Virus record (IMG/VR): IMGVR_UViG_2778261256_000004
Location: 1-22,473 of that record
Reading direction: 5' to 3' (one strand)
Length of the DNA: 22,473 nt
From: a virus
Taxonomy: Duplodnaviria; Heunggongvirae; Uroviricota; Caudoviricetes
Shown: positions 5,139 to 5,727 of the stretch, piece after piece
Numbering within the stretch: position 1 is the first letter of the stretch
Layout: every line of letters starts with the position of its first letter
Program-made: the position numbers and the translations under genes
The notes under the pieces: generated by a model
The model's database searches: none
Told to the model about the DNA's origin: nothing
The model's input: the letters and a program-made list of their open reading frames with translations, nothing else

Positions 5139-5471
5139 TTAGTTACCGCTGATAGCGCGGTTGTAATCATTAACGTTGCGATTCTTCCTGTTAATCCCCA
5201 TCAGCATCGTTTCTGTATCGAGGATATACGCTGGCAGATCATCAAAATATTCACTGCTAAACTCTGGCATCCTGCACATAAATGCACTTTTTGGGGCAGG
5301 GTGGTTAACCTTTGTCGGCGTCGGCGTTAAATTCGCTGATCGACTCCCGGAGCAACCGCTGAGTGTCAGCAGGAATACGCTGGCGAACATTACCCGCCGC
5401 AACCAGTTGTTTCTGAACTTCAGCTTTTCGTTCCATTTGCCTGTCAGCATATTTGGCTTGTTCTGATTCAT
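5139..5471 (-). CDS. Small lipoprotein precursor (P1 mlp-like); candidate o-spanin
   Basis: The ORF carries a lipobox LTLSGC after a hydrophobic segment VMFASVFLL, with basic residues before it. Likely start is the internal Met at about 5450 or 5390 rather than 5471. The mature part is about 60 aa and Pro/Thr-rich (TPTPTKVNHPAP). The 5-prime end overlaps the 3-prime end of the upstream membrane-protein gene in another frame. Confidence 0.6.
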   Translation of the reverse strand: MNQNKPNMLTGKWNEKLKFRNNWLRRVMFASVFLLTLSGCSGSRSANLTPTPTKVNHPAPKSAFMCRMPEFSSEYFDDLPAYILDTETMLMGINRKNRNVNDYNRAISGN

Positions 5472-5727
5472 TTTTCACTTCCTGGCTGTGAAAATGTTGC
5501 TCTGCTTTGTTCATCGTCTCAATGGTCTGGTTAAGATCCATTATTGACTTATCACGTTCCTTAACAGCCTGATCAAGACTGCCAATTTTCTCCATGGCTT
5601 GCTTTAGCTGATGACGTTCCCATGCAAACCCAGCACCAACAAGTGCGCAAATCAGAACAAGAACACCAGTAGCAGCAAGTTTCTCCTTCAAAGACAAAGC
5701 TGTTTTTAACGTAGAAAAGAATGACAT
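5305..5727 (-). CDS. Membrane-anchored coiled-coil protein (P1 ppfA-like); candidate i-spanin
   Basis: 140 aa from the ATG at 5727 behind a strong AGGAGG RBS (the track frame extends to 5754). One N-terminal transmembrane segment (ATGVLVLICALVGAGFAW) followed by a charged, predicted coiled-coil domain rich in Q/E/K/R. The 3-prime end overlaps the lipoprotein gene. Confidence 0.65.
   Translation of the reverse strand: MSFFSTLKTALSLKEKLAATGVLVLICALVGAGFAWERHQLKQAMEKIGSLDQAVKERDKSIMDLNQTIETMNKAEQHFHSQEVKNESEQAKYADRQMERKAEVQKQLVAAGNVRQRIPADTQRLLRESISEFNADADKG

Follow-up and report, generated by a model that had tools for sequence, protein, structure and literature searches.

A predicted overlapped two-component spanin, ppfA/mlp, in a P1-like phage-plasmid

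In P1, the predicted spanin genes ppfA and mlp overlap partially, and their operon is unlinked to other lysis genes (Bednarek et al. 2022, PMC9025707). A passage in the same paper credits Summer et al. 2007 with identifying ppfA/mlp, from predicted features. In the P1 reference annotation the name ppfA stands for "possible periplasmic function", and mlp carries the RefSeq label "Rz-like spanin". In Table S1 of Kongari et al. 2018 (PMC6139136), P1 (NC_005856.1) has the architecture 'ovl', gp064/PpfA being the i-spanin (OIS) and gp063/Mlp the o-spanin (OOS). The P7 row is likewise 'ovl', and the catalogue names Upf62.7 as the i-spanin and Upf62.4 as the o-spanin. The P1 and P7 pairs form a separate sequence family, "P1", in that catalogue. 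The catalogue row gives 0 periplasmic cysteines in the i-spanin and 1 in the o-spanin. It also carries the remark "too long signal sequence", with the LipoP cleavage site at the 39th position of Mlp. At least one periplasmic cysteine is present in 507 of the 528 catalogued two-component spanins. A literature search found no experimental test of ppfA/mlp function after Bednarek et al. 2022.

In this study, the window, that is, the whole stretch of 22,473 nt that was analysed, was compared with known phage-plasmids. The whole window aligned with P1-like phage-plasmids, from parB through the tail/baseplate genes. The 3-kb region around the pair showed 96.5–99.5% identity to P1, P7, SJ46, RCS47, and other Punavirus records. 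PpfA was 99.3% identical to P1 PpfA and Mlp was 99.1% identical to P1 Mlp, with one residue differing in each protein (I45M and S7N, respectively). At these identities, and with Shine-Dalgarno sequences and an overlap that matched the catalogue row, the pair falls into SpaninDB family 'P1'. The locus is ppfA/mlp of a P1-like phage-plasmid, and it is predicted with considerable confidence, from sequence and analogy, to encode an overlapped two-component spanin. The pair is filed as a predicted two-component spanin of overlapped architecture in the P1 sequence family. It was kept out of the Rz/Rz1 and LysB/LysC families because homology to those was not demonstrable.

The initial annotation of this DNA had read the locus as an overlapped i-spanin/o-spanin pair, and had proposed that published spanin catalogues be checked for P1. 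P1 was present there, as 'ovl' with gp064/gp063 (Kongari et al. 2018). The reading is therefore the published annotation of the locus, and the testable structural features of such a pair were also found. The spanin finding is correct and is not new, the pair being already in published catalogues as a predicted spanin. It has little weight as a discovery, since the spanin prediction dates from 2007 and was catalogued in 2018.

Both open reading frames were found on the minus strand where the initial annotation had placed them. The gene ppfA (positions 5305–5727, minus strand) encodes a predicted i-spanin of 140 aa. This assignment draws on the open reading frame, the identity to P1, the PHROG match, the AlphaFold2 model, and the catalogue entry OIS gp064. 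The start codon is the ATG at 5727, and the Shine-Dalgarno sequence AGGAGG (5733–5738, minus strand) lies 5 nt before it; the catalogue row has the same Shine-Dalgarno sequence. PpfA had a single hydrophobic segment, LAATGVLVLICALVGAGFA, at residues 17–35 (codons at 5623–5679, minus strand). Its mean Kyte-Doolittle value of 2.35 was the 19-residue maximum of the protein. The N-terminal flank of this segment had a net charge of +2, which is a weak positive-inside signal. The single N-terminal transmembrane domain of an i-spanin (type II, N-in/C-out) was thus predicted in PpfA.

The C-terminal domain of PpfA had 104 aa, of which 36% were charged, with 0 cysteines and 1 proline. The structure of PpfA was predicted by AlphaFold2 with an alignment of 11 homologues. 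The model showed a helix at residues 13–110, a break at 111–119, and a second helix at 120–137; the mean pLDDT was 67.5, and pTM was low, as expected for an extended monomer. A heptad a/d pattern was observed at about residues 37–83, and the observed score was reached by 2.4% of shuffles. The AlphaFold2 model and the heptad pattern together gave the mostly helical/coiled-coil domain, with a linker between helices, that is looked for in an i-spanin. PpfA matched phrog_89, 'Rz-like spanin', with an E-value of 1.2e-25, and also families 739 and 214. PpfA relatives from Pantoea and from a metagenome also matched PHROG spanin families. PpfA has the predicted features of an inner-membrane protein, namely an N-terminal transmembrane anchor and a helical domain of roughly 100 residues. 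The single N-terminal transmembrane segment and the long charged coiled-coil domain described in the initial annotation were both borne out by these values.

The gene mlp (5139–5471, minus strand) encodes a predicted o-spanin precursor of 110 aa, with a mature form of 71 aa. The evidence consists of the open reading frame, the identity to P1, the PHROG match, the selection data given below, and the catalogue entry OOS gp063. The start codon is the ATG at 5471, and the Shine-Dalgarno sequence AGGAAG (5478–5483, minus strand) lies within ppfA, 6 nt before the ATG. The signal consisted of a basic n-region (net charge +6), the h-region MFASVFLLT, and the lipobox LSGC at residues 37–40 (5352–5363, minus strand). 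Lipidation is predicted at Cys40, which would become the N-terminus, and Ser41 stands at +2, so the small lipoprotein has a lipobox with its cysteine and no Asp at +2, as an o-spanin should. Pro, Thr, and Ser made up 46% of the first 24 residues of mature Mlp. These results agreed with the earlier description of a small Pro/Thr-rich lipoprotein with lipobox LSGC. Mlp matched phrog_30284, 'Rz-like spanin', with an E-value of 3.5e-78. The results suggested that Mlp is an o-spanin precursor with a predicted lipoprotein signal peptide, a lipobox, and Ser at +2.

The Cys66 codon of mlp (5274–5276, minus strand) encodes the sole periplasmic cysteine of the pair, and the periplasmic domain of PpfA has none. 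The pair therefore has at least one periplasmic cysteine through Mlp. Cys66 was invariant in 7/7 aligned homologues, within the motif AFMC.MP. The signal peptide of Mlp was unusually long, at 39 aa, which counts against the spanin reading. Residues 1–39 are encoded at 5355–5471 and include a basic n-region of 27 residues; the length of this region and its Shine-Dalgarno sequence and ATG were kept in all homologues, and its sequence was not. The long signal peptide is thus apparently either genuine or a side effect of the same DNA also encoding the conserved C-terminus of PpfA.

The labels of the two proteins are swapped in Bednarek et al. 2022 and in a 2025 bioRxiv table, where ppfA is called the o-spanin and mlp the i-spanin. 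This contradicts the sequences, which place the transmembrane domain in PpfA and the lipobox in Mlp, and the 2018 catalogue agrees with the sequences. The swap in two recent papers is worth correcting.

The gene mlp was also misannotated in many records, where it was either uncalled or called as a 43–52-aa C-terminal piece without the signal peptide and lipobox. The fragments were labelled 'Rz1', 'Rz-like spanin', or 'hypothetical protein'. Cases were found in the window (5139–5471); in contigs L002 (2240–2380), L085 (5138–5269), and L004 (6458–6592); and in L086–L089. A separate PHROG family, phrog_15803 (46 aa, 'lipoprotein'), was built from C-terminal fragments of mlp. The omission or shortening of mlp in databases is a residual point of some value.

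The start of mlp lay 256 nt after the start of ppfA, and mlp is therefore read in the +1 frame. The dual-coding overlap was 167 nt long (5305–5471, minus strand), equal to 50% of mlp and 39% of ppfA. It encodes the C-terminal residues 86–140 of PpfA; read in the +1 frame, it gives the signal peptide of Mlp and the first 15–16 mature residues. An o-spanin gene is embedded in, overlaps, or adjoins its partner, and an overlapping one is read in the +1 frame; here the overlap was 167 nt, and in the homologues it was 164–179 nt. The downstream gene does begin inside the 3' end of the upstream gene in another frame, as had been claimed.

The limits of the family were investigated by several searches. 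When 1.84 billion representative proteins were scanned in full with HMMER, 34 matched at E ≤ 1e-3, which indicated a narrow family. The full-length HMMER matches whose context was examined belonged to P1-type elements with the same synteny, except P0109 and P0115, which were on short metagenomic contigs. Distant relatives in lysis cassettes were sought for functional context; the most distant relative, P0115, lay on contig L092 among unannotated small genes, so that no lysis cassette was recognized around it. The search for related loci on viral contigs returned near-identical P1-like loci only. A tblastn search of phages with the Pantoea homologue found JK004 only. In Pfam, no family reached the cut-off for PpfA or Mlp, and no spanin family was matched. 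The only NCBIfam matches of the pair were the LysB/LysC models (TIGR03495 and NF038368), with 19.0 bits vs a cut-off of 92.75 and 14.7 vs 27 bits. That the sole NCBIfam matches are the P2 LysB/LysC models is suggestive, though both scores were far below the curated cut-offs. The alignment of PpfA by hhalign gave a probability of 0.4% with P22 Rz and 1.7% with P2 LysB, and no homology was found to either. The PADLOC defence models had no matches, and a sequence search of the PDB found nothing relevant.

The gene upfB (5767–6612, minus strand) lies upstream of the pair, and upfC (6564–6848, minus strand) lies upstream of upfB. According to a 2026 cryo-EM study (PMC12810830), UpfC is the spike tip of the P1 baseplate and UpfB is its trimeric "tripod". 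UpfC had PAAR matches and was a PAAR protein homologous to T4 gp5.4. Since upfC and upfB encode baseplate proteins, the pair lies in an operon of virion genes, next to the replicon but distinct from it. The pair had been placed in an accessory operon beside repA; the operon does abut the replicon, and the flanking upfC and upfB are baseplate genes rather than accessory ones. No holin or endolysin gene was annotated in the region matching the window, which agreed with the claim that the pair is not beside a recognizable holin or endolysin. The pair was thus found outside a lysis cassette; spanin genes usually lie in such a cassette with holin and endolysin genes, but this location does not define them.

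Downstream of mlp is upfA (4735–5127, minus strand), a gene without assigned function, which is followed by a terminator-like hairpin (4706–4722). The gene after mlp was compared between the window (4735–5127) and contigs L087–L090. It was variable: upfA was present here and in P1, a Gp49-like gene (PF13876) was present in the Salmonella and Pantoea elements, and no gene was present in the Klebsiella contig L086. Divergent P1-type elements thus replace or omit upfA. In JL22, one of the P1-like plasmids, upfA contains a blaCTX-M-55 insertion.

The replicon next to the operon is not that of P1. The gene repA (3515–4399, minus strand) encodes a RepA with only 42% identity to P1 RepA, which is labelled RepFIB in a near-identical record of this element. 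The replicon region (3252–4600) contains iterons at 3252–3513 and 4476–4600 with the core TCGCGTATAGTCAAC; four are spaced at 21 bp upstream, and a second cluster lies downstream. Only from about window position 4605 onward does identity to P1 return. An open reading frame of 269 aa (2413–3222, minus strand) was found between parA and repA, and its counterpart in RCS47 is annotated as a GIY-YIG nuclease family protein. The matching interval of P1 holds the incA iterons instead.

A genome-wide CRISPRi screen provides limiting evidence. Knock-down of ppfA gave EOP values of 1.3/1.2 and left plating unaffected, and ppfA was scored non-essential for plaque formation. Knock-down of mlp gave 0.24/0.19, a four- to five-fold effect, and mlp was also scored non-essential. 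By comparison, lyz came out as essential there, and so did lambda Rz in one measurement out of two. According to Bednarek et al. 2022 (PMC9025707), shaken laboratory cultures do not require spanins for lysis, and for this reason the CRISPRi result does not refute a spanin role. The result leaves room for redundancy. There is a small chance that the pair does something other than lysis, or something besides it, for example in the envelope during the plasmid-prophage state, or that a second outer-membrane-breaking route makes it dispensable. The reasons are that the pair is co-oriented with and directly downstream of the spike-tip genes, that only sigma-70 promoters are predicted, and that the pair is non-essential in the CRISPRi screen.

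A pair that is a true spanin by structure could be redundant or dispensable in P1, if some other P1 factor opened the outer membrane, such as a disruptin-like peptide or a further lipoprotein/membrane-protein pair encoded elsewhere. The EOP of about 1 for ppfA and about 0.2 for mlp, with lyz essential, would fit this explanation. The P1 holins are already redundant (PMC9025707), and the curators of the catalogue noted the P7 lipoprotein Upf50.5 and had first taken Upf50.0 as the Rz equivalent (PMC6139136). However, the strong conservation of the pair in P1-like elements and the purifying selection on it point to an important function. Because lysis of shaken cultures reportedly does not need spanins, the lack of an effect in ordinary laboratory work may say little, and the CRISPRi knock-down may have been incomplete. 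Redundancy is considered unlikely.

The expression of the pair bears on a second explanation. In the P1 annotation, two sigma-70 promoters (P1ppfA and P2ppfA) are predicted inside upfB, just upstream of ppfA. These are the only annotated promoters for this transcription direction in the P1 stretch examined, which extends through the upfC-uhr intergenic region, and no P1 late promoter is annotated in that stretch. A search with the -22/-10 pattern of the late promoter LP26 gave 22 matches vs 19.8 expected, which was the chance level. A late-promoter candidate upstream of upfC (6881–6899) had 3 mismatches and was indistinguishable from chance. In the sigma-70 promoter scan, promoter-like sites also occurred at chance rate. 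RNA-seq data in a 2025 preprint showed no induction of upfB, ppfA, and mlp at 10 min and a marginal, non-significant rise at 20 min. In the same data, lyz, lydA, and prt behaved like these genes, and the divergent neighbour uhr was already induced at 10 min (log2FC 6.9). The timing is weakly consistent with late expression of the pair, and the position of the pair in a virion-gene operon fits late expression. Together with the baseplate genes upfC and upfB, ppfA/mlp are probably transcribed late, and not as part of a lysis cassette.

A sequence at 6926–6942, ATTGCTCTAATAAATAT, matched the site that the P1 annotation calls Odmt/Op68, an operator for the C1 repressor. Its place is between upfC and uhr, which are divergently transcribed, and C1 might therefore also influence transcription of the leftward upfC-mlp operon.

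Some phage lipoproteins exclude superinfecting phages or mask receptors. Likewise, ppfA/mlp, or Mlp on its own, could act in the lysogen instead of in lysis, with an envelope function of this kind expressed from the sigma-70 promoters inside upfB. Such a role would agree with the two promoters predicted just upstream of ppfA and the lack of an annotated late promoter; with the position of the pair next to a plasmid replicon; and with the non-essentiality of both genes for lytic growth in the CRISPRi screen. However, these promoters are predictions, and promoter-like sites occur at chance rate. At neither 0 nor 10 min of infection was induction of ppfA/mlp recorded, and there was no match to defence-system models. 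The overlapped, +1-frame arrangement of a transmembrane protein and a lipoprotein is the recognition signature of spanins, and both partners were co-conserved with this arrangement in every homologue. A role in the lysogen is thus judged quite improbable.

Conservation was investigated with the window and seven P1-type elements, namely P1 (at 99%) and six homologues. The homologues came from Cronobacter phage JK004; Klebsiella, Salmonella, and other enterobacterial P1-type contigs; and a Pantoea element. In the six homologues beyond P1, PpfA was 31–64% identical and Mlp was 48–67% identical. All homologues kept the gene order PAAR gene-upfB-ppfA-mlp. The overlapped +1 open reading frame, with an AGGAGG/AGGAAG Shine-Dalgarno sequence and ATG at the same place, was kept in all of them, and the lipobox L[SN][GA]C with Ser at +2 was retained in 8/8. 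The C-terminal parts were the most conserved regions of both PpfA and Mlp, and the Mlp C-terminal motifs DDLP.Y and INRKN.N were invariant among the homologues. In a survey of 77 P1-like phage-plasmids, mlp and ppfA were among the 21 'extremely conserved' genes.

Outside the overlap, the remaining half of mlp had a pN of 0.12–0.28 and a pS of 0.57–0.87. Therefore, mlp is a real gene under purifying selection. Within the overlap, the ppfA frame was more constrained (dN/dS 0.15–0.32); in the mlp frame, the n-region varied freely, and the h-region and lipobox were kept. Gene callers usually miss mlp or call its 43–52-aa C-terminal piece, but the idea that mlp is a chance open frame in and after ppfA with a lipobox-like motif is hardly credible and is refuted by the conservation data, in that the full open reading frame, Shine-Dalgarno sequence with ATG, and lipobox were kept in 8/8 elements at Mlp identities down to 48%, pN stayed far below pS, and the two C-terminal motifs did not vary.

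For the preferred reading, an overlapped two-component spanin, a mechanism can be proposed by analogy with lambda Rz/Rz1 and T4 PseT.3/PseT.2. The helical domain of PpfA would lie in the periplasm. Mlp would be exported, would receive its lipid at Cys40, and would end up in the outer membrane, in its inner leaflet. PpfA and Mlp would bind each other through their C-termini and form a periplasm-spanning bridge threaded through the peptidoglycan, and Cys66 may form a homotypic disulfide, giving an Mlp dimer. When the P1 holins and the SAR-endolysin Lyz destroyed the wall, the complexes would collapse, the inner and outer membranes would fuse, and lysis would be complete.

Among known spanins, the P1/P7 family was the closest, with an overlap, Shine-Dalgarno sequences, lipobox, and upfC-upfB-ppfA-mlp-upfA order identical to those found here. 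The locus differed from P1 in the adjacent replicon module, which has a divergent RepA and its own iterons.

Lambda Rz/Rz1, and P22 gp15/Rz1, share the predicted topology and mechanism of the pair: a type II inner-membrane protein with two helical segments and a small, Pro-rich lipoprotein of the outer membrane encoded in the +1 frame. The lambda Rz1 gene lies entirely within Rz, whereas just half of mlp overlaps ppfA. At 71 aa, mature Mlp exceeds Rz1 (about 40 aa) in size, and its C-terminal domain is conserved. The lambda and P22 proteins had no sequence homology to PpfA and Mlp. The label 'Rz/Rz1 type' given in the initial annotation therefore holds for the architecture and the predicted mechanism, and fails for sequence homology to lambda Rz/Rz1 by Pfam and hhalign.

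P2 LysB/LysC is the prototype of the overlapped spanin. Its o-spanin gene has the same +1 start inside the 3' end of the i-spanin gene and likewise runs past it. The sizes are also close, at 141/96 aa for LysB/LysC vs 140/110 aa for PpfA/Mlp. The periplasmic cysteines differ, with 2 and 4 in LysB and LysC and 0 and 1 in the P1 pair. The NCBIfam scores stayed below cut-off, and hhalign showed no homology between the P2 proteins and the P1 pair. The P2 lysBC genes lie in the lysis cassette. Unlike them, ppfA/mlp lie outside a lysis cassette.

In T4, the spanin genes pseT.3 and pseT.2 are likewise unlinked to the holin and endolysin genes. Cysteines are likewise found only in the o-spanin, the i-spanin having none in the periplasm. 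In T4 the two genes are separate, whereas those here overlap, and the T4 o-spanin has two cysteines vs one here. The function of PseT.3/PseT.2 was shown by complementation, whereas the P1 pair is a predicted spanin. Because T4 pseT.3/pseT.2 is a proven precedent, the unlinked location of ppfA/mlp is compatible with a functional spanin.
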